Shown: positions 3,154-25,034, counted from the stretch's first letter. The stretch is DNA of 64,000 nt from Deltaproteobacteria bacterium (GCA_030690165.1 JAUYHF010000007.1:26722-90721); one strand, 5' to 3'. Notes: a model not told the origin generated them from the sequence alone. Numbers and translations: made by a program.

Positions 3154-4130
3154 ATGGTGACTCTTTCGTATATCCTTTTTTCCGTTGCAGATATGACTTT
3201 TTCTTTTATATCTTTAAGATTGCCTTTTATATTGCATCCTGCCGCATTCATATGGCCGCCGCCGCCGAATTCCATTGAAATTTCGGCGACATCTATTCTG
3301 CCCTTGGATCTCATGCTTATCTTGTATTCCCCTTGTTTTGCCTCTCTTAAAAGGATACCGACTTCGACCCCTTCAATTGTTCTTGCGTAATTTACAAATC
3401 CATCGGCCAATTCCTTGTTTGCGTTAGCCTTATCAAGCATATCAAGGGTAACGACCAGAGAGGCGACCCTTCCATCACTTGTCAGCTCCAATGTATTTAA
3501 TACGGATGCAAGCAGTTTTAGTTTGTTGACAGGAATGCTCTCGTAAACTCTTTGAGATATATCCCAAGGGTCAACGCCAAGCCTAAGCATTTCTCCTGCT
3601 ATACCGAATGTCTTAGGTGTAGTGCAGGAGTATCTGAATGAGCCTGTGTCCGTAAGTATTGAAGTGTATATATTTATTGCTATATCACGGGTTATCGCAA
3701 CCGGTATCTCCTTTAAAAGGTCATAAACCATCTCGCCCGCGGCGCAGGCATCCGGGTCTATGACATTTATATCGCCAAAACAGTCATTTGTGGCATGATG
3801 GTCAATATTGATAACCTTTCCCTTGTTTTTTATCTTGTGAAAATCTTCGCCAAGCCTGTCTTTTTGTCCGCAATCTACAACAAAGACAGCATCATAGATT
3901 TTGTTTTCATCTATTTTGTTTGTGCATTTGTCTGCAAAGGGGAGAAAATTAAAGGTTTTTGGAACAGGGTCATACAAATATGCGGTTACATCCTTTTTAA
4001 GCTCTTTTAATCCCAGAACAAGGGAGAGCAGCGAACCAACTGCATCCCCTTCCGGGTTGACATGAGAAGACACAAGAAAGTTTTCGCCATTTTTAATTTC
4101 GTCTATTACTTCTTCAAATTTCTGAGCCAC
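3150..4130 (-). CDS. nrnA: DHH/DHHA1 phosphoesterase, NrnA-like oligoribonuclease/pAp phosphatase
   Basis: DHH motifs (NIDHHATN) and the DHHA1 GGGGHMNAAG motif. Sits between rbfA and truB. Confidence 0.85.
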   Translation of the reverse strand: MAQKFEEVIDEIKNGENFLVSSHVNPEGDAVGSLLSLVLGLKELKKDVTAYLYDPVPKTFNFLPFADKCTNKIDENKIYDAVFVVDCGQKDRLGEDFHKIKNKGKVINIDHHATNDCFGDINVIDPDACAAGEMVYDLLKEIPVAITRDIAINIYTSILTDTGSFRYSCTTPKTFGIAGEMLRLGVDPWDISQRVYESIPVNKLKLLASVLNTLELTSDGRVASLVVTLDMLDKANANKELADGFVNYARTIEGVEVGILLREAKQGEYKISMRSKGRIDVAEISMEFGGGGHMNAAGCNIKGNLKDIKEKVISATEKRIYERVTI

Positions 4131-4532: not shown

Positions 4533-6842
4533 TTACAGTTTTCCCGCTACTTCTTCTATCTGATATGCCTCTATAATATCGCCTACCTTGATATCATTAA
4601 ACCCTTCTATGGCAATTCCGCACTCATAGCCTGTTGCAACCTCTTTAACATCATCTTTGAATCTTTTTAAAGAGGCCATTTTACCGTCATATACTACCAC
4701 GTTGTCCCTTAAAAGCCTTACCTTATTTCCTCTCAATATCTTTCCATCAGTAACATAACAACCTGCAACAGTCCCTATCTTTGACACGCGGAAGCTCTCT
4801 CTTACATTTGCCCTTCCAAGTATATTCTCCCTGATTGTAGGCGCAAGCATCCCTTCCATCGCCTTTTTTATGTCATCTATCAATTCATATATAATGCTGT
4901 AAAGCCTTAAATCAACACCCTCTTTTTCTGCAAGCGCCTGGGCCTTGGGTTCAGGTCTGACATTGAAGCCGACTACTATTGCGTTGGATGCAGCCGCAAG
5001 CATTACATCGCCTTCCGTGACGCCTCCGACTGCGTTGTGTATGATATTTACTTTTATGGCATCGGTTGGAAGCTTATTTAATGCCTCCTTGACAGCCTCT
5101 ACCGAGCCCTGAACATCGCCTTTTACAACTATCCCAAGTTCTTTTACTTCACCTATTTTAATCTTTTCATATAACTCTGCAAGGCTTATCTTTGCTGTCT
5201 TTTTAAGTTCTGCCTCCTGCTTCTTTTTAAACCGTATTCCGGCAATCTGCTTTGCGGTTGCCTCATCCCTTACTACGGAAAATACATCGCCAGCCTCAGG
5301 AACGCCTGAAAGCCCAATGACCTCTACAGGCATAGAAGGTCCGGCCTCATCTACTTTTTTCCCCCAGTCGTTTGTCATTGCCCTGACCCTCCCGGAGTGC
5401 ACACCGCTTACAATCGCATCGCCTGTCTTTATGGTTCCTTCATGGACCAGGACTGTGGCAACCGGGCCGCGGCCTTTATCAAGCTTTGCCTCAACAACAG
5501 CGCCTTTGGCAGGTTTTTCTGGATTTGCCTTTAACTCCATTACATAAGCCTTAAGAAGGATGAGTTCCAGAAGCTCTTTAATGCCAATGCCTTTTTTTGC
5601 AGAGACCTCGGCAAATATTGTATCCCCCCCCCAGTCCTCCGGCACAAGGCCGTATTCTGTCAACATCTGTTTTACCCTGCCCGGGTCTGCGCCGGGGAGG
5701 TCAATCTTGTTTATCGCTGCAATTATCGGGACATTGGCAGCCTTGGCATGGTTTATCGCCTCTATGGTTTGAGGCATAACCCCGTCATCTGCCGCCACTA
5801 CCAACACCACCAGATCCGTTATCTTTGCGCCTCTGGCCCTCATTGCTGTGAATGCCTCATGGCCGGGTGTATCAAGGAATGTTATATCGCCTTTTTCAAG
5901 ATGGACATGATATGCGCCTATATGCTGGGTAATGCCTCCTGCCTCGCCGGCAGCCACATTTGTCTTTCTTATGGCGTCCAGAAGAGATGTCTTGCCATGG
6001 TCAACATGGCCCATAACAGTTACAACCGGAGGTCTGATTTTTATCTCGCCTGACGCCTCTGCAATATCCTTCAGAAGCGATTCTTCCTGCGGGGCAATGC
6101 TCTCAACCTCGTACTCAAAATCAGACGCAACCAATGTTGCGGTGTCCACATCTACAAATTGATTTATACTTGCCATTATGCCGAGGTTCATAAGTTTTTT
6201 TATAATATCGCCTGCCTTTATGCCAAGCCTCTGGGACAGGTCTCCAACACTTATGGCATCAGATATCTTTATAACCCTCTTGGCTGCCTTTGGCACAGTT
6301 ATCTCGGTCTTCTTAAGCTCCCTTTCCGTTGACGGCGGCCTTATTTTATAAAACTTTTCCGGCCTTTCAAATTTGCCTCTCTTGCCAAAAGGCCCTTTTC
6401 TTTCATACTGTTTTTTCTTAGCAGGCCTTTGTGCAGCAACAATTTTTATCTCTTTTTTAACATGCTTTTCTTCAGGTATTTTCTCTATTGATATTATAGG
6501 CGCGATGTGGGTTAGTTTAGATTCCGCTGAAGGAATTTCCGTTTTGGCAGGGGGAGTAGCCTTTTCTTCCTTTTCTATAATTACAGCGGTAGACGCCTTT
6601 TCTTTCTCTTCTATCCGCGTAACAGGCTTTCTACCAGTCTTTTTCCCTTTAACGGTCTTTTCCCCTTTAACAGGTTTTTTTACTTGTTCTGATATCTGAA
6701 CCTCTAACTTTTTTGCCGTTTCCTTTATTGCCTCTTCTGCCTTTTTGGCAGATACTTCTCTTTCTGTCTCTGTAGGCCCCACAGCCCTCCTCCGGATAAC
6801 AGTAGGTTTTACACGTTTTTCTTCTATTTTTTTATCTGCCAT
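4533..6842 (-). CDS. infB: translation initiation factor IF-2
   Basis: 769 aa; G-domain [24 protein letters not shown]; Lys/Glu-rich N-terminal extension. Confidence 0.98.
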
Positions 6843-8690: not shown

Positions 8691-8824
8691 AGACCTCCAA
8701 AAGATAAACCTTAAAATAAAAAAGCGGGCATAGGCCCACTTTCAAGAAGTGAATAACATAAATATTTTTGTTTTGCAAGTGAAAAATGTCGGCTTTTTGC
8801 TTTTCCCCCCTGAAAATTTTTCCC

Positions 8825-8853
8825 TTGACATTCTACATAAAGTAGAATATCTT
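8825..8853 (+). promoter_or_regulatory. sigma70-like promoter whose 17-nt spacer is a perfect palindrome (candidate BlaI-family operator 1)
   Basis: TTGACA (8825-8830), then 17 nt TTCTAC-ATAAA-GTAGAA (8831-8847), then TATCTT (8848-8853). The ATG at 8861 lies about 7 nt after the -10. Confidence 0.55.
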
Positions 8854-8860
8854 GGAGGAC

Positions 8861-9295
8861 ATGATAAAGGGATTTGCAAATATTTTCAGGCCGACCAGAA
8901 AAGGCCTTGGCCGCGCACTGGGCGATCTTGAAAAAGATATTATGGATATACTCTGGCAGAAGGGCGGGGTTACGGGCAAAGAGGCGCTTGAGGAAATAAG
9001 CCGTTCAAAGAAAGCGGCAATTACAACGGTTCTTACTGTGCTTGACAGGCTCGTCAAAAAAGGGATTGTAAAAAAGGCAAAGGGCGAGAGTGTTTATATA
9101 TACACCCCTGCATTGACAAAAGATGAGTTTACAGATATGGTTTCTCAGGCGGTAATGAGGGGTGTTTTGGATATATCCGCAAGCTCTGCTGTTGCCTCAT
9201 TTGTGGATGTCCTCGCAAAGACAGACCCGAAGGAATTAGACAGGCTTTCAAGACTTATAGAAAAGAAGAAAAAGGAATTAGGAAGGGGAAATTAA
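8861..9295 (+). CDS. BlaI/MecI/CopY-family winged-helix repressor
   Basis: LGDLEKDIMDILWQKGGVTGKEALEEIS...ITTVLTVLDRLVKKGIVKK...YIYTP matches the penicillinase-repressor fold pattern. The ORF track starts at TTG 8852; ATG 8861 is preferred. Confidence 0.85.
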   Translation: MIKGFANIFRPTRKGLGRALGDLEKDIMDILWQKGGVTGKEALEEISRSKKAAITTVLTVLDRLVKKGIVKKAKGESVYIYTPALTKDEFTDMVSQAVMRGVLDISASSAVASFVDVLAKTDPKELDRLSRLIEKKKKELGRGN

Positions 9296-10201
9296 GTGAT
9301 GGTTTTATTTATCACTATTATTTTTTTTATTCTAACTGCGGCATGGTTTTCCTACGGCTTCCCGCGGCTGATTTCATTCACAGAGGTTTTGGCAGAGTGG
9401 TGCCAGAGTCTGTTCCTTCAGTGTCTTGAGTATTTTTTAATTATAAAGACATTCTTTCTTTGGTTTGGTTTTATTGTTTTGTCTGCGTGGTTTGCTTACG
9501 CTGTTTTTAAAGCCTTTTTTACATTACTTAAGGCAGCCAGGCAGATTAAGAAACTTCCTTTATCTTGTCACGGCGATATTACAGTCATAAAGGATGATAA
9601 ACTAAAGACGGCGTTTACCCACGGTCTTTTCCAGCCTAAAATATATATATCTGCTGGGCTTATAAATTCCCTTGATAAATCAGAACTTAAGGCGGTCTAT
9701 CTGCATGAACTTCACCATAAGAACAGGAAAGACCCGCTTCGTTTCTTTATTCTATCAATTGCAAAAGATACATTCTTTTATATACCGGTAAAAGGATTTA
9801 TTGAAAGAATTATTCGCACAAGGATTGAGGCTAAGGCCGATGATGCGGCAGTGATGGAGATGAAAGAGCCGTTAAGCCTTGCAGCAGCCCTTTTAAAGAT
9901 TGCAGGATTTAATAAGAATATGCTCATGTTTCAGCCCGCGTCAATTACGGGGATTGGTTCTGTAGAGAACAGGATAAAGAGGCTTGTTGAAGGAAAGGGG
10001 GAGAAGATTAAACTCCCGTCAGCGAAGGCAATTGCAACGAGCATTTTTATATCAGGTTTCTTAATGCTGTCCCTCGCGTTTCCATTGTTTGCGTCTTTTC
10101 CTGCACATGGCCGATGCGATATGGAGCATTGCGATGTCCATAAGATTAAACTTGGAAAGGGCTGTCATAACCATTGCGAGGTTCAGGAACACAAACACTA
10201 A
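9296..10201 (+). CDS. BlaR1/MecR1-like M56 membrane metallopeptidase with Cys/His-rich C-terminal tail
   Basis: Several TM helices, HExxH site (YLHELHHKNRKDP). The tail is HGRCDMEHCDVHKIKLGKGCHNHCEVQEHKH. Translationally coupled to the blaI-like gene (TAA-GTG-ATG). Confidence 0.8.
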   Translation: MMVLFITIIFFILTAAWFSYGFPRLISFTEVLAEWCQSLFLQCLEYFLIIKTFFLWFGFIVLSAWFAYAVFKAFFTLLKAARQIKKLPLSCHGDITVIKDDKLKTAFTHGLFQPKIYISAGLINSLDKSELKAVYLHELHHKNRKDPLRFFILSIAKDTFFYIPVKGFIERIIRTRIEAKADDAAVMEMKEPLSLAAALLKIAGFNKNMLMFQPASITGIGSVENRIKRLVEGKGEKIKLPSAKAIATSIFISGFLMLSLAFPLFASFPAHGRCDMEHCDVHKIKLGKGCHNHCEVQEHKH

Positions 10202-10227
10202 TGCGTAAATTTTTTTTGGGCGATTTA

Positions 10228-10244
10228 TTCTACAATGCGTAGAA
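10228..10244. promoter_or_regulatory. second copy of the TTCTAC-N5-GTAGAA palindrome (candidate BlaI-family operator 2), upstream of cusC
   Basis: TTCTAC-AATGC-GTAGAA has the same 6-bp arms and 5-bp spacer as 8831-8847. Lies in the blaR1-cusC intergenic region. Confidence 0.5.
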
Positions 10245-10355
10245 GTATTGGATATGCGCAGCATAAGTGATATACGCGCTTTGGAAGCGCCGTTGACCCT
10301 TATGAAAGTATTTTAAGTTTTGCTTTATGGTGAACGTTAAAAATAAATAGACATC

Positions 10356-10416
10356 GTAGCTCAAGGCTTTAGCCTTGAAAGCCTTGAGAAACCTCAAACC
10401 TGAAGGTTTGAGCTAC
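10356..10416 (+). other. 61-nt nested or alternative hairpin element in the cusC 5' region
   Basis: Sequence GTAGCTCAAGGCTTTAGCCTTGAAAGCCTTGAGAAACCTCAAACCTGAAGGTTTGAGCTAC. Outer arms GTAGCTCAA/TTGAGCTAC; inner arms CTCAAGGCT/AGCCTTGAG and CTCAAACC/GGTTTGAG compete for the same bases. Confidence 0.4.
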
Positions 10417-10467
10417 AGAAGAATGTCAACTTATTTATGCCGTTTGCTTTAATTATGGAGTGAAGTT

Positions 10468-11745
10468 ATGAAACTACATAAAGTTATAAAGATTTTTCTA
10501 ATTTCTTTTTTGCTGATCCCTGATCCCAGACCCCTGACCCCTGCTTTTGCCCAGGAACCCTTATCAGTCAATGCGCTGATAGTTGAGGCAATGGCAAATA
10601 ATCCTGAGCTTCAGGCATTCAGGGAAAAGATTAAGGCAAAGGAATTCGCAGCAAGGGTTGAAGGGGTGTTGGATGACCCGACTTTTAAAGTGGAGATAGA
10701 GGATATAGCAAAGGATAGACCTTTCAATCTTGGCGATTCAATGCAGACCCGCTATACATTCAGCCAGATGTTTCCCTTTCCGGGCAAGCTCTCTTTAAAA
10801 CAAAGTATTGCCTTGAAAGATGTTTTAATATCAGGGGCGGAGCTTAAAAATAAAGAGCTTGAAATAACAGCGATGGTAAAGGATGTTTATTATGATTACG
10901 CATTCATAAATGAATCCATAAAGATAATGTATGAGATAAAGGATGTCCTTTCATATATGGCTGATGTGGCGCAGGTGAAATATTCAACAGGCCATGTTAC
11001 GCAGCAGGATGTTTTGAAGATTCAGACTGAGTTGACAATGCTAACAAATGAGATTATCTCCCTTGAGGCTGAAAAAGAGGTTGCTGAGGCAAGGATAAAA
11101 TCCATTCTCAATAGAAGTCAGGATGCAGTTCTTGGCGACCCTGGAAGAATAAAAAAAGACAGGATTAAAATTGATACGGCACAGCTTATGACTATGGCTT
11201 TGCAGAAAAATCCGGCTATAAAGGCTATGGAGTATGAGACCCAGGCCAATGAATTAAATGTGGGATTGGCAAAAAAGAATTATTATCCGGATTTTATGCT
11301 CGGTGTTGCGCCAATTCAGAGGGATGGCAGGTTTGAAAGCTGGGACCTTATGCTTCAGGTAAATATACCCCTCTGGAGGAGCAAATACGATAACCAGACC
11401 AGAGAGGCGCAGGCAAATACTAATGTGTTTAAATCCAGATTGAATGCCGAGAAAAACCTGAAAGGGTTTGATGTTAAATCCGCTGCTGTCAAGGTGGAGG
11501 CAGCAGAGAGGATAACGACCCTTTATGAGACGAGCCTCCTTCCTCAGGTGGAGTTGTCCTTTGAGTCTGCCATGAAAAATTATCAATCAGGCAAGATTGA
11601 TTTTATATCGCTTCTTGACGCTGAGCGGACTCTGAAAAGGACAAAGATAGAATATCTCAATTCCATTACGGATTACAGGAAGAAGATAGCCATGTTGGAG
11701 AAGGTTGTGGGGGAAGAGTTGGATACAGTGGACAGTGGTAAGTGA
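10468..11745 (+). CDS. cusC: TolC-family outer-membrane efflux protein (CusC-like)
   Basis: 425 aa, signal peptide, two OEP repeats. First gene of a three-gene heavy-metal RND operon. Confidence 0.85.
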   Translation: MKLHKVIKIFLISFLLIPDPRPLTPAFAQEPLSVNALIVEAMANNPELQAFREKIKAKEFAARVEGVLDDPTFKVEIEDIAKDRPFNLGDSMQTRYTFSQMFPFPGKLSLKQSIALKDVLISGAELKNKELEITAMVKDVYYDYAFINESIKIMYEIKDVLSYMADVAQVKYSTGHVTQQDVLKIQTELTMLTNEIISLEAEKEVAEARIKSILNRSQDAVLGDPGRIKKDRIKIDTAQLMTMALQKNPAIKAMEYETQANELNVGLAKKNYYPDFMLGVAPIQRDGRFESWDLMLQVNIPLWRSKYDNQTREAQANTNVFKSRLNAEKNLKGFDVKSAAVKVEAAERITTLYETSLLPQVELSFESAMKNYQSGKIDFISLLDAERTLKRTKIEYLNSITDYRKKIAMLEKVVGEELDTVDSGK

Positions 11746-11825: not shown

Positions 11826-13112
11826 ATGAAGCGATTTTTAGCAATTTTATTCCTTTTAATAGCCGTTGCTATTGCGGCTGGAGTTGGATGGTATTTCTTT
11901 TATAATAAAAAGCCGCAGCTTGCAGAAATCCCTGTGGTCAAGGAACGCAAGGCTTTATTTTACCGCCATCCCATGAACCCATCTGTAACATCCCCTGTGC
12001 CAAAGAAGGATGAGATGGAAATGGATTTTATACCTGTTTATGAGGAGGAGGCAGCAGAGGCAGAAGCGCCAGGCGCTGTTATGATAAGTACTGAGAAGAT
12101 TCAAAAGATAGGTGTGAAAATAGAAGAGGTAAAGAGACGCACACTCAAGAGAACGATAAAGACTGTTGGCAGGGTTGAACATGACGAGGCAAGGGTCTTT
12201 AATATCAATGCAAAGGTTGGCGGCTGGATTGAAAAACTTTATGTAAATAGGACTGACCTGATGGTTCATCCAGGTGAAAAACTCCTTGAATTATACAGCC
12301 CTGAATTAGTTTCAACGCAGGAGGAATATCTCCTTGCAATAAAGGTAAAGGAAAGGGTTAAGGACAGTCCGTCTGAGGAGGTTAAAAAGGGCGCGGATTC
12401 CCTTGTGGAGGCGGCAAAAAAGAGGCTTAAATACTGGGATATTTCAGATGAACAGGTAAAGAGGCTTGAGGGAGAAGGGCGGATTACAAGGACGATGGCT
12501 ATCCTTGCCCCTGCCCAAGGGATTGTGACAGAGAAGATGATAAACGAGGGGCAGAAGATAGAGGCAGGCGAGATGCTCTTTAAGATTATAGACCATTCTC
12601 GGGTATGGGTGTATGGCGAGGTATATGAATATGAACTTCCTTTTGTAAAGATAGGGCAGACGGCAAGGATAATTCCATCTTATACACCGGCAGAAATCTA
12701 TACCGCTACTATCAGCCACATTTATACACATTTGGGCAGTATAAGGCATGAAGGGGGGGCAGGAATGGAAGATGCAAGGACCGCCAAGATAAGATTTGAC
12801 CTTCCCAATCTCCGGCATAAGCTAAAGCTTGGCATGTATGTGAATGTGGAACTTGCAGTGGATGTGGCAAAAAATGCCATTGCAGCGCCAGACTCTGCCC
12901 TGATAGATACAGGTGTCCGACAGGTGGTAATCGTAGATAAAGGGGACGGGAGGTTCGAGCCAAGGGAGGTGAAGGTCGGCGCGCAGGGAGATGGATATTA
13001 CCAGATTATCTCAGGCGTAAAAGAAGGCGAGAAGGTTGTTACATCTGCCAATTTTCTCATAGATTCCGAATCAAGCTTCAGGGCAGCGCTGCAGGGGATG
13101 AAAGGGCATTAA
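11826..13112 (+). CDS. cusB: RND periplasmic adaptor subunit (CusB-like)
   Basis: 428 aa, N-terminal TM anchor, Met-rich N-terminal segment (KKDEMEMDFIPVY), HlyD/barrel-sandwich pattern. Stop abuts the cusA start. Confidence 0.85.
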   Translation: MKRFLAILFLLIAVAIAAGVGWYFFYNKKPQLAEIPVVKERKALFYRHPMNPSVTSPVPKKDEMEMDFIPVYEEEAAEAEAPGAVMISTEKIQKIGVKIEEVKRRTLKRTIKTVGRVEHDEARVFNINAKVGGWIEKLYVNRTDLMVHPGEKLLELYSPELVSTQEEYLLAIKVKERVKDSPSEEVKKGADSLVEAAKKRLKYWDISDEQVKRLEGEGRITRTMAILAPAQGIVTEKMINEGQKIEAGEMLFKIIDHSRVWVYGEVYEYELPFVKIGQTARIIPSYTPAEIYTATISHIYTHLGSIRHEGGAGMEDARTAKIRFDLPNLRHKLKLGMYVNVELAVDVAKNAIAAPDSALIDTGVRQVVIVDKGDGRFEPREVKVGAQGDGYYQIISGVKEGEKVVTSANFLIDSESSFRAALQGMKGH

Positions 13113-16100
13113 ATGTTAAAAAAAATTATTGAGCTTTCCATAAACAACAAACTCATCATCCTCCTCTTTACCCTCTTTGCAGTCGGATGGGGTATATGGG
13201 CTGTTTACCGCATGCCGCTTGATGCAATACCTGACCTCTCTGATGTCCAGGTTATAATCTATACGGAATACCCCGGACAGGCCCCTCAGGTTGTGGAAGA
13301 CCAGATTACCTATCCATTGACAACCGCCATGCTCGCTGTGCCGAAATCAAAGGTAGTAAGGGGCTTTTCATTCTTCGGCGTTTCATTTGTATATATCATT
13401 TTTGAAGATGGCACAGACATATACTGGGCAAGGTCAAGGGTGCTGGAATATCTTAATTTTGCATCCGGCAAACTCCCCAAAGGTGTAACGCCTTCACTCG
13501 GCCCTGACGCAACGGGTGTTGGCTGGGTATTTCAATACTCCATAGAAGGCAAAGGTTATAGCCTTGCAGAACTCCGCAGCATCCAGGACTGGTATATCCG
13601 CTATCAGCTTACAAAGGTCCCTGGGGTATCAGAGGTTGCATCTATCGGCGGTTTTGTCAAACAGTATCAGGTGAATGTAGACCCTAATAAACTCCTCATC
13701 TATAACATATCGCTAAAGGATGTAATTGAATCGATCAAGATGGGGAACATGGATGTTGGCGGAAGGGTCGTGGAGCTTGCAGAGCGTGAATACATGGTGA
13801 GGGGCCTCGGCTATATCAAAAATATTCCTGATATAGAAAATATTGTTTTAAAGGTTGACAGGAGCGGCACGCCAATCAGGATAAAGGATGTGGCAAGGGT
13901 TGAACTTGGTCCTGATGAGAGAAGGGGGATTGTGGAGAGGGATGGCGAGGGCGAGGTAGTTAGCGGCATAGTTGTAATGCGGTTTGGTGAGAATGCCCTA
14001 AGAGTGATAGATGATGTTAAGAACAAGATAGAGGAGCTAAAGCCGGGTCTGCCGCCTGACGTTCATATTATCACAACTTATGACAGGAGCAGCCTCATCC
14101 ATCGGGCCATTGCAACACTCAAGGAAAAACTTATAGAAGAATTCATTGTCGTTTCCATCGTATGTATCATCTTCCTCCTGCATTTCAGGTCTGCACTTGT
14201 TGCCATTCTTGTGCTGCCGGTGTCCATCCTCATATCCTTCATCGTGATGCACTATCTTAAAATAAACATGAATATCATGAGTCTTGGCGGCATTGCCATT
14301 GCCATCGGCGCAATGATAGACGGCGCCATTGTGATGATTGAAAATGCACACAAGCATCTTGAAAGGGATAAAGGAAAGAAGGAGCATTGGCAAATTATCG
14401 CTGATGCCGCAAAAGAGGTTGGCCCGCCATTATTTTTCTCCCTCCTTATTATTACGGTTTCATTTATGCCTGTATTTACGCTTGAGGCGCAGGAGGGTCG
14501 GCTCTTTAAACCCCTTGCATTCACAAAGACATTTGCCATGGCAGCATCTGCGCTCTTGTCTGTAACACTCGTGCCTGTGCTTATGGGGTTTTTTATCAGG
14601 GGACGGATCATCCCTGAGCATAAAAACCCCATCACCAGGCTGATGACATGGATATACAGGCCTGCTATTAAGCTTGTCCTCAGGGCAAAAATTACAACCA
14701 TACTGATTGCCGCCATGGCTCTTGGCGCCACAATCTATCCTTTAAGCAAACTGGGAACCGAATTTATGCCTACGCTCTACGAAGGCTCGCTTATGTTTAT
14801 GACAGCCACACTTCCGGGTGTGTCAGTAACAAAGATAAATGAACTCCTCCAGACAACAGATAGAATAATAAAGTCATTCCCAGAGGTTGAGCAGGTCTTT
14901 GGTAAAGTAGGCAGGGCGCAGACGGCAACAGACCCAGCGCCCCTTGAGATGTTTGAGACAATTATAAACCTGAAGCCTGAAAAAGAGTGGCGTCCCGGCA
15001 TGACTGTGGACAAGCTTATTCAGGAGATGAGCGCAGCCCTTGAGACGCCGGGTCTTCCAATCCAGTGGTCAATGCCTATTAAAAACAGGGTGGATATGCT
15101 TGCAACAGGCATAAGGACGCCTGTTGGCGTGAAGGTATTTGGAAAGGATTTAAACACAATAGAAAAACTTGCAGCAGAGATTGAGGCAGTTTTGAAAGGT
15201 GTGCCGGGCACATCAAGCGCTTATGCGGAGAGGATTATCGGCGGATATTATGTTGATATAAAGATAAAAAGGGATGAGGCGGCAAGATATGGGTTAAAGG
15301 TTGAGGATATACAGCAGATTATTATGTCTGCTATAGGCGGAGAGAATATAACAACAACAGTTGAAGGGGTTGAGAGGTATCCTATAAATGTCAGATATAA
15401 GAGGGAATTCAGGGACAATATGGATAAGATTGGAAGGGTATTTGTTCCAACAATGACGGGACAGCCCATACCCCTCTCGCAGGTCGCTGATATAACCTTG
15501 AGCAAAGGCGTTGGAGGAATTAAAACAGAGAATGCCTTGCTTAATACATGGATATATGTTGATGTCAGGGACAGGGATATTGGCAGTTATGTTAGAGATG
15601 CAAAAAAGGTTGTGATACAAAATGTGAAATTCCCTGCGGGCTATTATGTAACATGGAGCGGCCAGTATGAATATATGGAAAGGGCTTATGCGAAGCTTAA
15701 ATATATTGTTCCGCTCACACTTATGATAATATTCCTTCTGCTGTATTTCAATTTCAAGTCAGTCACCGAATGTCTCATAATCCTGCTCGCTATCCCTTTT
15801 TCAATAATCGGCTCTGCCTGGATACTCTATATTTTGGGCTATAATATAAGCATCGCTGTTGTCGTGGGCTTTATAGCCCTTGCGGGTCTGGACGCGGAGA
15901 CGGGTGTTATCATGCTCATCTATCTTGACGGGGCATACAAGAAACGAAAGGAAGAGGGGAAGATGAACACTAATGCCGACCTCTATGATGCCATAATGGA
16001 CGGCGCTGTGAACAGGATAAGGCCAAAGGTAATGACGATAACGGCTATTATTGCAGGACTACTGCCTATCATGTGGAGCGCAGGCACAGGCGCTGAAGTG

Positions 16101-16238
16101 ATGAAGCGGATAGCAGCGCCAATGGTAGGCGGGATGGTAACATCAGGACTGCTGGAACTCCTTGTGATCCCGGCCGTATATGCGCTGTGGAAGGGATGGG
16201 GGATGAAGCAGGGAGCTGATGTTTATTCCAAAGACTGA
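13113..16238 (+). CDS. cusA: CusA/CzcA-family heavy-metal efflux RND pump
   Basis: 1041 aa, 12-TM RND architecture; C-terminal GAEVMKRIAAPMVGGMVTS resembles CusA. Confidence 0.9.
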   Translation: MLKKIIELSINNKLIILLFTLFAVGWGIWAVYRMPLDAIPDLSDVQVIIYTEYPGQAPQVVEDQITYPLTTAMLAVPKSKVVRGFSFFGVSFVYIIFEDGTDIYWARSRVLEYLNFASGKLPKGVTPSLGPDATGVGWVFQYSIEGKGYSLAELRSIQDWYIRYQLTKVPGVSEVASIGGFVKQYQVNVDPNKLLIYNISLKDVIESIKMGNMDVGGRVVELAEREYMVRGLGYIKNIPDIENIVLKVDRSGTPIRIKDVARVELGPDERRGIVERDGEGEVVSGIVVMRFGENALRVIDDVKNKIEELKPGLPPDVHIITTYDRSSLIHRAIATLKEKLIEEFIVVSIVCIIFLLHFRSALVAILVLPVSILISFIVMHYLKINMNIMSLGGIAIAIGAMIDGAIVMIENAHKHLERDKGKKEHWQIIADAAKEVGPPLFFSLLIITVSFMPVFTLEAQEGRLFKPLAFTKTFAMAASALLSVTLVPVLMGFFIRGRIIPEHKNPITRLMTWIYRPAIKLVLRAKITTILIAAMALGATIYPLSKLGTEFMPTLYEGSLMFMTATLPGVSVTKINELLQTTDRIIKSFPEVEQVFGKVGRAQTATDPAPLEMFETIINLKPEKEWRPGMTVDKLIQEMSAALETPGLPIQWSMPIKNRVDMLATGIRTPVGVKVFGKDLNTIEKLAAEIEAVLKGVPGTSSAYAERIIGGYYVDIKIKRDEAARYGLKVEDIQQIIMSAIGGENITTTVEGVERYPINVRYKREFRDNMDKIGRVFVPTMTGQPIPLSQVADITLSKGVGGIKTENALLNTWIYVDVRDRDIGSYVRDAKKVVIQNVKFPAGYYVTWSGQYEYMERAYAKLKYIVPLTLMIIFLLLYFNFKSVTECLIILLAIPFSIIGSAWILYILGYNISIAVVVGFIALAGLDAETGVIMLIYLDGAYKKRKEEGKMNTNADLYDAIMDGAVNRIRPKVMTITAIIAGLLPIMWSAGTGAEVMKRIAAPMVGGMVTSGLLELLVIPAVYALWKGWGMKQGADVYSKD

Positions 16239-16255: not shown

Positions 16256-16426
16256 ATGGTTATTGATCCGGTTTGCAAAATGACTATTAGCGAGGAGAAA
16301 GCAATTGAAAAGACAGAATATAACAGCAAGACATATTATTTCTGCGGTAAGGGTTGTAAGGATAGGTTTGAGAAAGAGCCTGAGAAGTATCTCCGTGGAG
16401 AGAAGAAGGATTGGATTAAGGAATGA
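16256..16426 (+). CDS. YHS/TRASH-domain metal-binding protein (56 aa; below ORF-track cutoff)
   Basis: AGGAGG RBS then MVIDPVCKMTISEEKAIEKTEYNSKTYYFCGKGCKDRFEKEPEKYL: the DPVC-x-M...YYFC-x2-C YHS pattern. Same motif as the CopA N-terminus. Confidence 0.85.
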   Translation: MVIDPVCKMTISEEKAIEKTEYNSKTYYFCGKGCKDRFEKEPEKYLRGEKKDWIKE

Positions 16427-20392: not shown

Positions 20393-20824
20393 ATGAATAA
20401 AAACCTCAACACAATAGGTAAACTGGCAAAGGCAGTTAATGTTAATGTGCAGACTATTCGCTATTATGAAAGGCTGGGGTTATTAATGCCTGCGGGCAGA
20501 AAGGAATCCTACAGGCAATCCGGATACCGTTTATACGACAAGTTGTCATTGAAGCGGTTACTTTTCATCCGTCATGCAAGGGAATTAGGTTTTACCCTGG
20601 AAGAGATTAAAGAACTTCTTAATCTCAGTGTTAGCCCCACTGCGAAGTGCGGAGATATAAGAAAGAAGGCAGAAGAAAGGCTGATGGATGTTAATAAAAA
20701 GATAGATGGGCTTGAGTCTATGCGAACGATTTTAAAGAGACTGATAAAGAGCTGCATGAGCAGAAAAGATACAGACCCATGTCCAATACTAAAGGCAATT
20801 GATGAAGACGGGTGGCAGGTATGA
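20393..20824 (+). CDS. merR: MerR-family metal-responsive regulator with Hg-type three-Cys spacing
   Basis: N-terminal HTH (IGKLAKAVNVNVQTIRYYERLGLL). Cys at residues 86, 121 and 130, i.e. spacings 35 and 9 as in Tn21/Tn501 MerR C82/C117/C126. Confidence 0.75.
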   Translation: MNKNLNTIGKLAKAVNVNVQTIRYYERLGLLMPAGRKESYRQSGYRLYDKLSLKRLLFIRHARELGFTLEEIKELLNLSVSPTAKCGDIRKKAEERLMDVNKKIDGLESMRTILKRLIKSCMSRKDTDPCPILKAIDEDGWQV

Positions 20825-21109: not shown

Positions 21110-21170
21110 TATTAAGGGCAAATGGGGCAAAATTCCCATTTGCCCTTAATATCTTTGGGAGGTGAAATCT

Positions 21171-21503
21171 ATGAAGGAAAGACGTGCATCTATTGCAGGT
21201 ATGTTTACCGCGCTTATTGCCGCGAGTTGCTGTATCGGTCCAGCCCTTTTCCTTGCCTTTGGGATAACAGCCTTGGGGTTTCTTACAAGGCTTGAGGTCT
21301 TTAGACCATATCTTCTGATTTTGACATTTGTCCTTGTTGGTATCTCCTACCATTATGTCTATGGCAAGGGTTCAAGGTGCAAAGATGACGAGGTATGCAA
21401 CCCAAGGGCAATAAGGATAAACAGGGTCCTCTTCTGGGTTCTTGTGGGTTTCGCAGTATTCGGGATTAGTTTCCCGTATGTTGCAGCATGGCTGCTGGTT
21501 TAG
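21171..21503 (+). CDS. merT: MerT-like mercuric ion transport membrane protein
   Basis: First TM carries a vicinal Cys pair (LIAASCCIGPALF); second Cys pair in the loop (CKDDEVC). About 110 aa, 3 TM. ATG 21171 after GGGAGG. Confidence 0.7.
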   Translation: MKERRASIAGMFTALIAASCCIGPALFLAFGITALGFLTRLEVFRPYLLILTFVLVGISYHYVYGKGSRCKDDEVCNPRAIRINRVLFWVLVGFAVFGISFPYVAAWLLV

Positions 21504-21525: not shown

Positions 21526-21819
21526 ATGACAAGGTTAGCCGCTATCCTTATCTGTCTGGTCTTTATATCTTCAAACCCTGCAATAGCAGGGGAGGTAAAA
21601 TCTGTTACCCTTGAAGTGAAAGGGATGACATGCAAACTGTGTCCCCCGATGGTAAAGAAGGCGCTAACAGATGTGAAGGGGGTTAAGAAGGTTGATGTAA
21701 GTCTTGAAAAAAAAGAGGCCCATGTGGAATACGAGGATGGGGTAGTAAAACCAGAGGAACTAATCAAGACTATAGATAAAGCAGGTTTTAAAGCATCTTT
21801 ATCAAAGGAAAAGAAATAG
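21526..21819 (+). CDS. merP: MerP-like periplasmic heavy-metal-binding protein (HMA fold)
   Basis: Signal peptide plus VTLEVKGMTCKLCPPMVKKAL (GMTCxxC). Confidence 0.85.
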   Translation: MTRLAAILICLVFISSNPAIAGEVKSVTLEVKGMTCKLCPPMVKKALTDVKGVKKVDVSLEKKEAHVEYEDGVVKPEELIKTIDKAGFKASLSKEKK

Positions 21820-21845
21820 GCGGTTGCAAATTGAAAGGATTATCT

Positions 21846-22292
21846 ATGGAATGTTGTCCTCCCCAAAAGATACAAACCGATTTGGTTAAATGTTCAGGTT
21901 GTGGTAATACCGGACAGTCTATTAAAACCAGAACCCTCAAACACTGGCTCATAGCAGAACTTGTGCCCACCATCCCTAAAGTCCTCTTTTATTTCTGCAA
22001 GACAAGGGACTGTTCTGTAGTCTACTTTTCAGAGGATGGCTCTATCCGATATACAAAAGACCAACTCCGGGGCATAATAGGTGTCAAAGAGACAACCTCT
22101 CCCATTCAGGTGTGTTACTGTTTTGGTGTTACAGAGGAGATGATATTAAAGGAGATTAGAGAGACAGGCAAGTCGTCCTATTCCACATGGATTGCAAAAG
22201 AGATAAAGGAGGGTAATTGCGCCTGCGATGTGCGTAACCCAAAGGGTAGTTGCTGTCTTGCCGAGATAAAAAAGGCTGAAAAAGGACATTAA
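21846..22292 (+). CDS. Cys-rich protein resembling the CopZ N-terminal Zn/[2Fe-2S] (BFD-like) domain
   Basis: MECCPP..., CSGCGN, then CYCFGVTEEMILKEI...GNCACDVRNPKGSCCL (CxC...CxC...CC, BFD-like). The start is probably ATG 21846 rather than TTG 21831. Confidence 0.5.
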   Translation: MECCPPQKIQTDLVKCSGCGNTGQSIKTRTLKHWLIAELVPTIPKVLFYFCKTRDCSVVYFSEDGSIRYTKDQLRGIIGVKETTSPIQVCYCFGVTEEMILKEIRETGKSSYSTWIAKEIKEGNCACDVRNPKGSCCLAEIKKAEKGH

Positions 22293-22599: not shown

Positions 22600-22668
22600 A
22601 TGATACCTAACAAGAGTTATGACAAAAATTTCAAAGCAAAAGTAGCGTTAGAGGCATTAAAGTTTATT
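22600..22668 (+). mobile_element. 23-codon stub of an IS3-family transposase OrfA N-terminus
   Basis: MIPNKSYDKNFKAKVALEALK is the characteristic start of IS3-family OrfA (..FKAKVALEALKGE..). Similarity and base composition break at about 22665-22680. Confidence 0.5.
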
Positions 22669-22992
22669 GATCCAAGTATAGCCATCGCACTCAGCCTCAT
22701 CTTGGTTGCGACCAGTGTATTGGCCGCTCCAGCCAGCTACCGACTGCGGGTAGACGGACTCGCTTGCCCGTTCTGTGCCTATGGCATCGAGAAGAAGCTG
22801 GGCGCGCTTGAAGGCGTCCAGAGCGTTGAAACGCACATCAAAGACGGTGTCGTGATCGTCACCATGAAGGGTGGGGTTACGCTCGATGAAGCAACGGCCA
22901 AAAAGGCGGTGAAAGAAGCCGGCTTTAATCTGCGCAGCTTCGAACAGACCCAAGCCGCTCCACAAAGCACACCGGGAGGACAGGCAAATTGA
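22600..22992 (+). CDS. periplasmic HMA-domain protein; native start lost, reading frame now opened by the IS3 stub
   Basis: From about 22676: ..IAIALSLILVATSVLAAPA (signal-peptide remainder) then YRLRVDGLACPFCAYGIEKKLGALEGVQSVE (HMA with CPFC). G+C-rich codon usage. Confidence 0.6.
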   Translation: MIPNKSYDKNFKAKVALEALKFIDPSIAIALSLILVATSVLAAPASYRLRVDGLACPFCAYGIEKKLGALEGVQSVETHIKDGVVIVTMKGGVTLDEATAKKAVKEAGFNLRSFEQTQAAPQSTPGGQAN

Positions 22993-23882
22993 AGACGGTG
23001 TTGAGGACGGGGGTGGCCGCCTTGTGCCTATGGAGCGCAGCCGCCTGGAGTGCGCCGAGCACCTTCAATACCGCCCTTCCGGTCTACGAGGACGGCTGGG
23101 TTCTGCGCGAGCAGTTTTTATTCATGAAGAACGCCGACGATCCCACGTCCGCGAACCGCGACATGGAAGTGTCAGGCGTTATGTCGGTGCTGGGTTATGG
23201 CGTAACCCGTGATCTCGCGTTGTTTGGTGTGCTGCCCTACTTCGATAAACGCCTGGATATGACCATGGGCGGGCAGGATATCACCCGTCGTAAACAGGGC
23301 ATGGGCGATATCACTTTAATGGGGCGCTACACGCTGTTCGAGCGCAATGCTCAGGGACAGACATTGCGTGTGGCGCCGTTTCTTGGGGTGAAAGCCCCGA
23401 CTGGCAGCGACAACGCCCGGGACGGTTTGGGGCGTCTGCCGCCGCAGGTTCAGCTTGGTTCAGGTTCATGGGATATACTCGGCGGTGTGGTCGGCACTTA
23501 CCAAACGCTGGATTTCGAGATCGACGGCCAAGTGAGCTACAAGGCCAATCGCGAAGCCAACGGTTTTCAATTCGGCAATGTGACCGAACTCGATGCTTCG
23601 CTCCAGTACCGCCTGTGGCCGCGCAGTTTGGGTGCAGGCCTTCCTGGTTTTCTCTACGGCGTCATAGAAGCCAACCTCGTTCATGCGGCCAAGGACCGGA
23701 GCGGTGGCTTGGCTGACCCGAACTCGGGAGGCGCCACGCTGTTTATCGCGCCTGGGCTGCAATATGTCACCCGCAAATGGATTGTCGAGGCCGGCGTTCA
23801 GATTCCCGTCATCCAGAACCTCAATGGCACGGCGCTCAAGAACGATTATGTCTTTACCACCGGGTTCCGCATCAACTTCTAA
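22989..23882 (+). CDS. outer-membrane beta-barrel protein (MetA-pathway/transporter-type porin)
   Basis: 297 aa, signal peptide (CLWSAAAWSAP), alternating beta-strand pattern, C-terminal TTGFRINF. High G+C. Confidence 0.6.
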   Translation: MKTVLRTGVAALCLWSAAAWSAPSTFNTALPVYEDGWVLREQFLFMKNADDPTSANRDMEVSGVMSVLGYGVTRDLALFGVLPYFDKRLDMTMGGQDITRRKQGMGDITLMGRYTLFERNAQGQTLRVAPFLGVKAPTGSDNARDGLGRLPPQVQLGSGSWDILGGVVGTYQTLDFEIDGQVSYKANREANGFQFGNVTELDASLQYRLWPRSLGAGLPGFLYGVIEANLVHAAKDRSGGLADPNSGGATLFIAPGLQYVTRKWIVEAGVQIPVIQNLNGTALKNDYVFTTGFRINF

Positions 23883-23894
23883 GGAGAATGAGAC

Positions 23895-24887
23895 ATGAAA
23901 CTCACCACCGCTATCAAGGTAGGCCGCACTATCATCATCGTAGCGGCGGTCTTCATGGTGGCCGGCCGGCTGGCTTTCGTGCCTTCGGCTAAGGAGCCGT
24001 CCTACCGGTTCGTCACCGCGTGGGGTGAAAAAGGGGATGCCCCGGGACAGTTCAACGACCCGACCGGAATCGCCGTGGCCGGCGACGAGGTGTTTGTCGC
24101 CGATTCCCGCAACGGCCGCATCCAGGTCTTCGATCTCGACGGCCACTTCAAGCGCCAGTTCGGTTCGCCAGGCGATGGCCCTGGCCGGTTGGGCCGGCCG
24201 ATGAATCTCACGGTTCACGAGGGCGAGCTCTACGTTGCCGAGTACTTCAACGACCGCATCCAGATGTTCGCGCTCGACGGCACCCCGAAGCGGACCATCG
24301 GCAAGCCGGGAAGCGGCCCAGGCGAATTCAATGCGCCGGGTGGGGTGGCCGTGGCGCCGAACGGCGATCTGTTTATCGCCGATTTCTACAATCAGCGTAT
24401 CCAGCACCTCAAGGCGAACGGCCGCTTTGTGCGCCAGTGGGGCACGACCGGTAAAATCGGCATCTGGGCGGAGGAGTTCAACTATCCCACGGACGCGGCC
24501 TTGGGTCCCGACGGCATCCTTTACGTGGCCGATGGCTACAACGACCGGATACAGGTCTTCGGTTCCGACGAGACTTTCCTGCGCAAATGGGGCGGCCCGT
24601 TCGCCATGAACATCTTCGGCCCGTTCAACGGCTGGTTTGCGACGGTGACCAATGTGACGGTCGACAGGAAAGGCGATGTGTTCGTCGCTGACTTTTACAA
24701 CCATCGGATTCAGAAATTCGCCGCCGATGGCACGTTCCTGACCCGCTTCGGCACGAAGGGAAGCGGCCCAGGCCAGTTTAATCATGCCATCGCTGTGGCG
24801 GCGGCCGATGACGGAACGGTATTCGCCGTCGATTTCGGCAACAACCGCGTGGGAAAATGGCGGCAGGGAATGAGTTATGAGCGGTAG
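23895..24887 (+). CDS. NHL-repeat six-bladed beta-propeller protein
   Basis: Repeated G.G.GQFN.P.GVAV...G.L(Y/F)VAD..N.RIQ.F blades (six copies); N-terminal TM/signal. High G+C. Confidence 0.8.
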   Translation: MKLTTAIKVGRTIIIVAAVFMVAGRLAFVPSAKEPSYRFVTAWGEKGDAPGQFNDPTGIAVAGDEVFVADSRNGRIQVFDLDGHFKRQFGSPGDGPGRLGRPMNLTVHEGELYVAEYFNDRIQMFALDGTPKRTIGKPGSGPGEFNAPGGVAVAPNGDLFIADFYNQRIQHLKANGRFVRQWGTTGKIGIWAEEFNYPTDAALGPDGILYVADGYNDRIQVFGSDETFLRKWGGPFAMNIFGPFNGWFATVTNVTVDRKGDVFVADFYNHRIQKFAADGTFLTRFGTKGSGPGQFNHAIAVAAADDGTVFAVDFGNNRVGKWRQGMSYER

Positions 24888-24891
24888 GCGC

Positions 24892-24922
24892 TTGACTTGG
24901 AGTCATCTCCAGGCTCTAACCT
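24892..24922 (+). promoter_or_regulatory. orphan MerR-family (CueR/ZntR/CadR-type) metal-responsive promoter
   Basis: TTGACT (24892-24897), 19-nt spacer TGGAGTCATCTCCAGGCTC with dyad CTTGGAG/CTCCAGG, then TAACCT (24917-24922). Same layout as E. coli PcopA/PzntA. Confidence 0.6.
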
Positions 24923-25034
24923 TAAAGTTGAACCAGAAGGCCGGTCTCCCTTTTGCCAAGCGCCGGCAAAAAATAGTAGCATCCTGCGCAAAACCTTGTT
25001 AGACTTTGCATGAGATTTTCATCAGGGATGCCGT

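Follow-up and report, generated by a model that had tools for sequence, protein, structure and literature searches.

How is a Cus-type copper/silver efflux pump controlled where its genes directly follow a repressor-protease pair, when the usual regulator of cusCFBA in Escherichia coli is the CusRS two-component system? We address this question for a cusCBA operon in a stretch of 64,000 nucleotides from a Deltaproteobacteria bacterium (GCA_030690165.1 JAUYHF010000007.1:26722-90721; "the window" in the following), in which a BlaI-type repressor and a short M56 membrane protease are encoded directly upstream of the pump. An original prediction had proposed that this pair forms a proteolytic switch of the BlaR1-BlaI type, rewired such that metal binding to a Cys/His tail of the protease is the signal and cus expression the output. 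Wherever this prediction could be examined computationally, the outcome was in its favor. We conclude that the module is probably a so far undescribed way of switching on metal efflux. For the whole chain of repression, periplasmic Cu(I)/Ag(I) sensing, proteolysis, and expression of cus together with the pair itself, the sequence comparisons below suggest a probability of about 0.55. DNA binding, cleavage, metal binding, the identity of the metal, and the direction of control are the parts that we infer.

The repressor and protease open reading frames abut each other and are located between two copies of the palindrome TTCTAC-N5-GTAGAA (Table 1). The repressor stop codon TAA (9293-9295) directly adjoins a GTG (9296) and an ATG (9299), the latter being the likely start of the protease, and GGAAGGGG is found just 5′ of these codons. 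Thus, the translational coupling claimed for the pair is plausible. All coordinates of the original prediction proved correct on re-inspection. The source records describe the module with no more than the labels "M56 family metallopeptidase" or "hypothetical protein".

Matches in Pfam, NCBIfam, and PDB, the latter by sequence and by fold, support the assignment to the BlaI/BlaR1 type. The repressor hits PF03965 above the cut-off (E 1e-25, residues 20-134), and its sequence matches in the PDB comprise BlaI of Staphylococcus aureus (1SD4, E 5e-11), BlaI of Mycobacterium tuberculosis (2G9W), and MecI (1OKR). Its top NCBIfam match is CopY/TcrY (TIGR02698), with 56.9 bits versus a cut-off of 121.95. 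Neither a CxCx4CxC motif nor any conserved cysteine is present in the repressor, which has no cysteine at all, or in the alignment of 16 orthologues; consequently, the repressor cannot sense metal in the way CopY does. The segment TTVLTV of the recognition helix is invariant in the 16 orthologues, which parallels the invariance of the operator arms. Further, a conserved ...SGA.ASFVD.LA segment corresponds in the alignment to the stretch of S. aureus BlaI that is cut at N101|F102; this position reads S|F here, keeping the Phe but not the Asn. Cleavage of the dimerization domain probably near ...ASF|VD... would fit this alignment, although such a fit is not proof.

The palindrome occurs twice in the window as exact copies, compared to 0.02 copies expected, and none of 100 shuffled sequences contained two or more. 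No further copy is present in the 64 kb, even if two mismatches are allowed. The first copy, operator 1 (8831-8847), exactly fills the 17-nucleotide (nt) spacer between the hexamers TTGACA and TATCTT of promoter P1, which scores 10/12 in a promoter scan and is preceded by an A/T-tract ahead of its -35 hexamer; it indeed forms the spacer of the pair's own promoter, as had been noticed before. The second copy, operator 2 (10228-10244), lies 26 nt 3′ of the protease stop codon TAA (10199-10201), within the gap between protease and cusC where it had been described.

For comparison, we collected 17 loci from a one-genome-per-species scan with a 9-sequence alignment and added 3 more contigs. After omission of L016, a remote Verrucomicrobiota match, 19 related loci were compared, all from uncultivated "Deltaproteobacteria"/Thermodesulfobacteriota. 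The P1 layout TTGAC(A/T)-operator-TAnnnT precedes the repressor gene in 18 out of 18 loci that cover this region. Across the related loci, operator 1 follows the pattern TTCTAC-N5-GT(A/C)(G/A)AA with a freely differing N5: the right arm is GTAGAA in L001-L006, L017, L018, and L019, GTCGAA in L007-L014, and GTAAAA in L020. Operator 2 is exact, again with variable N5, in all 12 genome loci covering the gap, and deviates by one mismatch in L018 (GTAGTA), L019 (ATCTAC), and L020 (TACTAC). Both palindromes are phylogenetic footprints over the orthologous loci. Operator 1 is predicted to block RNA polymerase at P1 when occupied, leading to autoregulation of the pair.

The repressor ATG at 8861 is positioned 7 nt past the -10 hexamer TATCTT (8848-8853), and the same distance amounts to 6-7 nt in eight related loci (L001, L002, L003, L005, L006, L008, L014, and L017). 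Owing to this short distance, the repressor mRNA is probably leaderless in this clade, while L004, L010, and L013 have a leader with a Shine-Dalgarno sequence instead. L005 additionally carries a partial duplication about 2.8 kb upstream of its complete module (3662-3882), consisting of an extra P1 with operator 1 (TTGACA-TTCTACACTAAGTAGAA-TATATT) and the first ~64 repressor codons.

The protease matches PF05569 (E 3e-10, 40.2 bits versus a cut-off of 31) and also PF01435. A search of a 90%-clustered protein set yielded 156 relatives of ~300 residues, nearly all of them from metagenomes or from genomes labeled Deltaproteobacteria/Thermodesulfobacteriota and annotated at most as "M56 family metallopeptidase". 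Residues H137, E138, and H141 of the HExxH motif as well as E178 and D182 are invariant in a 113-sequence alignment. The family profile aligns to BlaR1 residues 143-325 of 8EXP (E 3e-10), a segment comprising the catalytic motif and the last membrane helix. Moreover, the best Foldseek matches of an AlphaFold2 (AF2) model with a mean predicted local distance difference test (pLDDT) score of 82 are the BlaR1 cryo-EM structures 8EXS and 8EXP. Three N-terminal membrane helices, a cytoplasmic gluzincin domain, one more helix, and a periplasmic Cys/His tail make up the architecture of the protein.

In BlaR1, the helix ending near residue 335 leads into the extracellular sensor domain (PMC9834060). 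In the window protease, the protease domain and the last 35 residues are connected by a single hydrophobic helix (~residues 243-266), and neither a transpeptidase-like sensor domain nor an SxxK motif is present. Likewise, NF000326 is matched with only 35 bits versus a cut-off of 400, at profile positions 145-328 of 585. As the protein terminates 35 residues past the helix aligned with the last BlaR1 helix, ending in ...HGRCDMEHCDVHKIKLGKGCHNHCEVQEHKH as originally reported, the proposed replacement of the penicillin-binding domain by the tail is borne out. The long extracellular loop 1 (EL1) of BlaR1 (residues 56-96), which docks into the sensor domain and relays the signal to helix 3 (PMC9834060), has no equivalent either: only one or two residues (K51, T52) are found between hydrophobic segments 2 and 3. 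The homology to BlaR1 places the tail in the periplasm, and so does topology, since a protease that acts on a DNA-binding repressor needs to have its catalytic domain in the cytoplasm.

The tail follows the consensus C-x4-C-x2-H-x3-(K/R)-L-G-x2-C-x2-H-C, succeeded by one or more histidines; in the window, its ligand candidates are arranged as C274-x4-C279-x2-H282-x7-C290-x2-H293-C294...H299-x-H301. The motif is kept in close and distant relatives, down to 38% identity. Within the 113 sequences, C274 and C279 are each present in 113, C294 in 111, and C290 in 99, while the histidines are found in 108 (H282 and H293 each), 97 (H299), 75 (H278), and 66 (H301) sequences. Conservation of the tail among orthologues, on which the original prediction depended, is therefore pronounced. 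A second cysteine pair, C-x6-C (CQSLFLQC, C36 and C43), resides in membrane helix 2 near its periplasmic end. In the same alignment (CQSLFxxC), C36 shows no variation, and C43 is kept in at least 90% of the sequences. Since helix 2 runs from inside to outside in the BlaR1 topology, C43 would be positioned near the periplasmic face, by the short junction to helix 3.

An exhaustive search of 1.84 billion representatives returned 895 clusters at E ≤ 1e-10; at E ≤ 1e-30 there were 64, which essentially make up the tail-bearing family. Among the full-length representatives, every protein with the tail motif also has the C-x6-C pair, which reaches beyond the strict motif to 33 further representatives with other Cys-rich tails. 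The pair is associated with the presence of at least two cysteines in the last 45 residues (70/73 versus 27/57; Fisher p = 2e-10, uncorrected for shared ancestry). By this co-occurrence, tail and helix-2 pair look like two halves of one device. The earlier view of the tail as metal sensor is thus supported as far as its conservation is concerned, but the tail is probably not the sole sensory element, because the helix-2 pair always accompanies it. The copper site of the extracytoplasmic Sco/SenC proteins consists of C-x3-C plus a histidine, so that a thiol/imidazole site for copper outside the cytoplasm is plausible in chemical terms, above all in anaerobes. Short Cys- or Met-rich tails are also carried by many further short M56 proteins of ~300 residues (representatives P0121-P0254), e.g., GCSPETCRSMGCM, CHPPCCCGSACVKGP, and MHPPTEAPRMMSACPMGMPGCGMR, which suggests that small ligand sites in the periplasm may characterize a broader class of M56 proteins lacking a sensor domain.

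The operon cusCBA, presumably the output of the switch, encodes a pump that is of the true Cus type, in agreement with the predicted Cu/Ag specificity of this resistance-nodulation-division (RND) system. Its CusA scores 1239 bits against E. coli CusA (3K07/3T51), compared to 585 bits against the zinc pump ZneA, and 1249 bits against the CusA/CzcA family of NCBIfam. When aligned to 3T51, the window CusA has Met at all three positions of the Cu(I)/Ag(I)-binding methionine triad, M573, M623, and M672 (chain positions 580, 630, and 679). The gene order repressor-M56-cusC-cusB-cusA recurs in 14 out of 14 loci reaching a pump gene (12 genome loci, L018, and L019), down to ~39-41% protease identity, so that the suggested co-occurrence of tailed M56 proteins with cus operons holds in every locus in which it can be seen. 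The upstream neighbors vary, with rimP/nusA in L001 only, pilus genes in L018, and unrelated enzymes in L019.

Two groups of neighbors differ from the window. In nine loci, the first gene after operator 2 codes for a small secreted protein of 124-156 residues with the motif L.GM.MG..FS(F/Y)MN, which is probably a periplasmic copper-binding protein. Pfam searches with these Met-rich proteins returned only sub-threshold matches (YtkA-like, DUF4426, Fe2+ transport), and no such protein is found in the window, L001, L004, L008, L014, L018, and L019. In the distant relative L015 (29-1323; 34% identity), a BlaI-type repressor is again combined with a short M56 protein, whose helix 2 contains SCQTLFLSC and whose tail is Cys-rich in a different manner (CSSHCSTNACC). 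It is flanked by genes for a CcdA-like protein, cupredoxin-like membrane proteins, and a CopA ATPase (4549-6777), and a palindrome TACTAC-N5-GTAGTT is located at 2699-2715, just before an open reading frame at 2719.

How operator 2 would act on the pump is indicated by its surroundings. In 13 out of 13 loci, operator 2 is preceded by an A-tract, 6-8 T, TT(G/C/A)nnn, and then 5-6 nt, and a spacer of 17-18 nt places a -10 hexamer TAGAAn inside the right arm of the operator; we refer to this arrangement as the proposed promoter P2. In L019, the block of T-run, TTGnnn, and operator 2 is separated from the protease stop by ~195 nt but from the OEP gene by only ~40 nt, and therefore belongs to the pump rather than to the 3′ end of the protease gene. 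In nine loci, the ribosome-binding site and ATG of the next gene start 10-27 nt after operator 2, implying that transcription must start at or inside the operator. An intrinsic terminator was considered for operator 2 and rejected: the stem has 6 bp and is AT-rich, the T-run lies 5′ rather than 3′, and the scan made no call.

Taken together, these features suggest the following mechanism. A dimer of the cysteine-free repressor would bind TTCTAC-N5-GTAGAA at P1, where the operator takes up the whole spacer, and at P2, where it overlaps the -10 hexamer, thereby keeping both promoters shut. Periplasmic Cu(I) or Ag(I) would be bound by the thiolates and imidazoles of the tail, probably along with the C-x6-C cysteines of helix 2. 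The membrane helices might then transmit the metal-induced change, much as in BlaR1, in which the sensor acts on the loop preceding helix 3, and the protease would become active. The active protease would cut the repressor, probably at ...ASF|VD... in the dimerization domain, and the cut repressor would leave the DNA, allowing transcription of both the cus operon and the sensor pair. The individual steps are not equally secure: binding of the repressor to the operators is very likely, its inactivation by proteolysis is likely, and for the tail as a direct metal ligand the odds are slightly better than even.

Several observations weigh against this mechanism; they concern the cleavage site, the tail, and P2. 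The cut site is only a guess, as S|F is found here in place of the N|F of S. aureus. Residues 270-301 of the AF2 model have a pLDDT of 46-54, so that the model lends no structural support to a metal site and its geometry cannot be read. A Pfam scan of the tail gave no match, and a profile of the tail alone (plus 8 residues) retrieved no matches from a 5.8-billion-protein set, not even members of its own family. Chemically, the four tail cysteines could equally make two structural disulfides, and a Cys/His site alone does not separate Cu(I) from Zn(II) or Cd(II).

The strongest rival builds on these points. It retains the circuit as a whole but takes the tail not as a metal ligand but as a disulfide-stabilized cap or a thiol redox sensor. 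As signal, this rival allows for the oxidation of periplasmic thiols, caused by copper or not, the binding of metal to the helix-2 C-x6-C pair only, or a partner protein, for which the Met-rich periplasmic protein that many loci encode past operator 2 is a candidate. Four near-invariant cysteines within a 30-residue extracytoplasmic segment are the usual pattern of a disulfide mini-domain, and the failure of AF2 to model the tail adds to this view, as does the wider distribution of the C-x6-C pair, given the 33 representatives without the strict tail motif. However, H282 and H293 are as conserved as the cysteines (108/113 each), and a disulfide scaffold needs no such histidines. A partner protein is favored by the Met-rich protein being the first gene product after operator 2 in 9 loci, yet it is missing from the window and from six loci whose circuit is otherwise intact. 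We therefore regard a tail without a role in metal binding as unlikely, and direct sensing by tail and helix 2 remains our preferred explanation.

The points concerning P2 bear on the link to the pump. P2 is not called by a simple sigma-70 scan with the E. coli consensus, because the last base of its -10 hexamer is not T. Because P2 is a poor promoter by E. coli standards, transcription may read through from P1, with operator 2 in the role of a roadblock; we consider this a minor alternative. In L012 (5904-6587), T-run and TTGCCC are present after the protease stop, and the sequence diverges exactly where operator 2 should begin; operator 2 is absent, and no cus gene occurs in the 680 nt past the protease. 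The place after the protease is taken by a very Met-rich secreted protein (MGGGPMMQGQGGGMMMDKQQMM...) in this locus. The weakness of P2 would suit a pair that regulates itself only, with cusCBA transcribed by read-through from P1 or from another downstream promoter and operator 2 serving as a roadblock at most. All genes share one strand, the protease gene and cusC are not separated by a terminator, and the window cusC begins 223 nt past operator 2, which is also in keeping with read-through. Nevertheless, such restricted self-regulation is improbable, as the T-run and its TTGnnn partner accompany operator 2 at 5-6 nt in all 13 loci and move along with it in L019, P1 shows the same A/T-tract ahead of its -35 hexamer, and the downstream gene follows operator 2 after just 10-27 nt in 9 loci. 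Moreover, a roadblock at operator 2 would still put cus under the same repressor, so that the pump would be controlled by this repressor whether through P2 or through roadblocked read-through.

Highly improbable is a non-metal signal such as envelope damage, sulfide, or an organic compound, with the cus link reduced to co-transcription in a resistance island: while most characterized M56 sensors detect beta-lactams and the window is a mixed metal island with a separate MerR-family regulator (20393-20824), the penicillin-binding domain is absent, the Cus pump is the only conserved neighbor across 14 loci with differing surroundings, the distant relative L015 adjoins CopA and cupredoxin-like genes, and the closest characterized system, PetRP, responds to copper.

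Table 1. Coordinates of the module, its regulatory sites, and associated genes (window positions unless another locus is named).
Feature	Position	Strand	Description
Promoter P1 of the pair	8825-8853	+	-35 TTGACA 8825-8830; 17-nt spacer; -10 TATCTT 8848-8853
Operator 1	8831-8847	.	TTCTAC-ATAAA-GTAGAA = TTCTACATAAAGTAGAA; exact palindrome; predicted repressor-dimer site
Repressor gene	8861-9295	+	BlaI/MecI/CopY-family winged helix, 144 residues; PF03965
Protease gene	9296/9299-10201	+	Short M56/M48 membrane zinc protease, 300-301 residues; PF05569, PF01435
C36...C43 codons	9401-9424	+	C-x6-C pair (CQSLFLQC), membrane helix 2, near periplasmic end
HELHH codons (H137, E138, H141)	9704-9718	+	Zinc-binding/catalytic motif; invariant columns; aligns with BlaR1 HEXXH...E
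E178 codon	9827-9829	+	Third zinc ligand; invariant
C-terminal tail codons	10097-10198	+	Residues 268-301; putative Cu(I)/Ag(I)-binding element in the periplasm
Proposed promoter P2 of the cus operon	10210-10245	+	T-run 10210-10217; -35-like TTGGGC 10216-10221; 6-nt gap; operator 2
P2, -10-like hexamer	10240-10245	+	TAGAAG, within operator 2 right arm
Operator 2	10228-10244	.	TTCTAC-AATGC-GTAGAA = TTCTACAATGCGTAGAA; predicted repressor site overlapping P2 -10
cusC (OEP)	10468-11745	+	Pfam OEP
cusB (CusB-type adaptor)	11826-13112	+	Pfam HlyD_D23/CusB
cusA (RND permease)	13113-16238	+	Pfam ACR_tran; NCBIfam CusA/CzcA family
Small YHS-domain protein gene	16256-16426	+	PF04945, E 1e-18; 17 nt after cusA
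Met-rich secreted protein	L002 3259-3729, L005 7928-8314, L006 8018-8449, L007 1778-2191		
Met-rich secreted protein	L009 7962-8357, L010 7942-8316, L013 7942-8325, L017 7991-8395, L020 7229-7639		

Upstream of the pair, rimP, nusA, and infB are encoded on the opposite strand. The sole Rfam match in the region is a sub-threshold hit to L20_leader on the minus strand (8710-8808; 32 bits versus a gathering score of 58.7, E 6e-4), situated upstream of rimP and overlapping a terminator-like hairpin (8743-8720); an RNA element was rejected on this basis, and the match is probably due to chance or to an unrelated leader or terminator. Between operator 2 and cusC, the window contains a 124-nt insertion (10328-10451) that does not occur in the orthologous locus L001. 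It is bordered by a 9-nt direct repeat, TTTGCTTTA, at 10319-10327 and 10443-10451, is rich in hairpins (e.g., 10360-10388 and 10393-10412), and is present as a single copy in the window; it looks like a small element of the miniature inverted-repeat transposable element (MITE) or repetitive extragenic palindromic (REP) type with a target-site duplication.

Downstream, the YHS-domain gene is probably on the same transcript as cusA, and it is also found 3′ of cusA in L001; no terminator-like site was found in the cusA-copA interval. The genes after it code for an ICMT-like membrane protein, a P-type ATPase that contains two YHS domains, and a SHOCT protein. A second metal module further downstream consists of the MerR-family regulator mentioned above, MerT (21162-21503), an HMA protein (21526-21819), a zf_CopZ protein (21831-22292), and a further HMA protein (22600-22992). 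With this module, the metal island joins a cytoplasmic MerR-type sensor to a membrane protease switch. Positions 23000-25000 have a G+C content of 0.59-0.61, compared to 0.40-0.46 in the flanking sequence, and may be foreign DNA; the genes of the high-G+C stretch code for a MetA-pathway-like outer-membrane protein (22989-23882) and an NHL-repeat beta-propeller protein (23895-24887).

Among known systems, PetR/PetP of Synechocystis sp. PCC 6803 is the only characterized relative. PetP degrades PetR in response to copper (bioRxiv 10.1101/2020.07.31.226407; PMC7896320), and PetR abundance drops on copper addition in a PetP-dependent manner (bioRxiv 10.1101/2020.07.31.226407). The principle of a metal-sensing M56/BlaI circuit is therefore not new: the original prediction is supported by the sequence in proposing such a circuit here, but needs correction on this point. 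As in the window, a BlaI-family repressor is directly joined by a short M48/M56 protease without penicillin-binding domain, and the genes overlap or abut and share one transcript. Four membrane helices are predicted for PetP, whose HExxH domain is cytoplasmic (bioRxiv 10.1101/2020.07.31.226407). In the repressed petE promoter, the core site of PetR, GAC-N5-GTC, is flanked by the -35 and -10 elements (bioRxiv 10.1101/2020.07.31.226407); it thus shares the inverted repeat with 5-nt spacing, but not the sequence, with TTCTAC-N5-GTAGAA. Hexamer repeats with this spacing are established for the BlaI family, since BlaI_0696 of Clostridium thermocellum binds GTCTAT inverted repeats 5 nt apart, as determined by DNA affinity purification sequencing and electrophoretic mobility shift assay (PMC8457756).

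The two systems differ in output, sensor, and lineage. PetR controls petE and petJ in a cofactor switch and activates one of them, whereas the window repressor would control a Cu/Ag RND pump and the pair itself. The authors of the PetP study propose two Met residues of the loop that joins helices 2 and 3 and describe no Cys/His tail (bioRxiv 10.1101/2020.07.31.226407); in contrast, the window protease has the conserved tail and the helix-2 C-x6-C pair, and its helix 2-3 junction is devoid of Met. This comparison is drawn from the published description of PetP and PetR rather than from a sequence alignment. Finally, PetR/PetP is cyanobacterial, while the window family belongs to uncultivated Deltaproteobacteria/Thermodesulfobacteriota. 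How PetP senses copper is an open question, for which the window family, with six Cys and two to four His, offers a compact candidate. Tentatively, and with somewhat less than an even chance of being right, we propose that short M56 proteins with a helix-2 C-x6-C pair and a Cys-rich tail may constitute a widespread, unrecognized class of transmembrane metal sensors that control metal export via cleavage of BlaI-type repressors (Cus here, CopA in L015), and that a thiol/imidazole site of tail and helix 2 may be how PetP-like proteases detect copper. The 17-bp operator and the compact Cys/His site are amenable to peptides, point mutants, and reporters, and might be of use as a compact Cu/Ag-responsive genetic element.

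A search of the literature retrieved no BlaI/M56 pair tied to cus or to RND metal efflux, and the available part of a 2024 review of bacterial metal sensing (PMC11672702) lists CopY and no M56-dependent sensor. CopY/TcrY of Firmicutes (TIGR02698; PMC7253601; PMC11672702) belongs to the same winged-helix family and likewise represses copper export via two palindromic operators. According to the available part of the same review, CopY senses Cu(I) itself by a C-terminal CxCx4CxC (PMC11672702), and it needs no protease partner, while the window repressor is free of cysteine. CopY also differs in its operator, KACANNTGTA, and in its target, which is a P-type ATPase and not an RND pump. CusRS resembles the proposed switch in sensing periplasmic Cu(I)/Ag(I) and turning on a Cus RND pump, but operates by phosphotransfer between kinase and response regulator instead of repressor proteolysis. 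No kinase or response regulator gene is found beside the pump in the window, L018, and L019. If our interpretation is correct, regulated proteolysis ahead of cusCBA would follow a regulatory logic different from that of CusRS.

The closest mechanistic models are BlaR1/BlaI and MecR1/MecI of S. aureus (8EXP-8EXT, PMC9834060), which share the repressor fold, the HExxH...E motif, and the last membrane helix with the window pair, as well as an autoregulated operon with palindromic operators overlapping promoters and the passage of a signal from an extracytoplasmic element to a cytoplasmic protease. BlaR1, with 585 residues, has a transpeptidase-like sensor, SxxK, and a long EL1, whereas the window protease of 301 residues has none of these. 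The operators of BlaI and MecI, like those of CopY, are of the TACA/TGTA type in contrast to the 6-N5-6 arrangement found here, and their output is beta-lactamase or PBP2a rather than metal efflux. If the proposed switch is real, BlaR1-type signaling, known mainly from antibiotic resistance, would extend to metal homeostasis outside cyanobacteria. In summary, the module would act in the manner of BlaR1-BlaI and PetP-PetR, with a protease that differs from BlaR1 in lacking its sensor domain and a repressor that differs from CopY in lacking its metal-binding motif.

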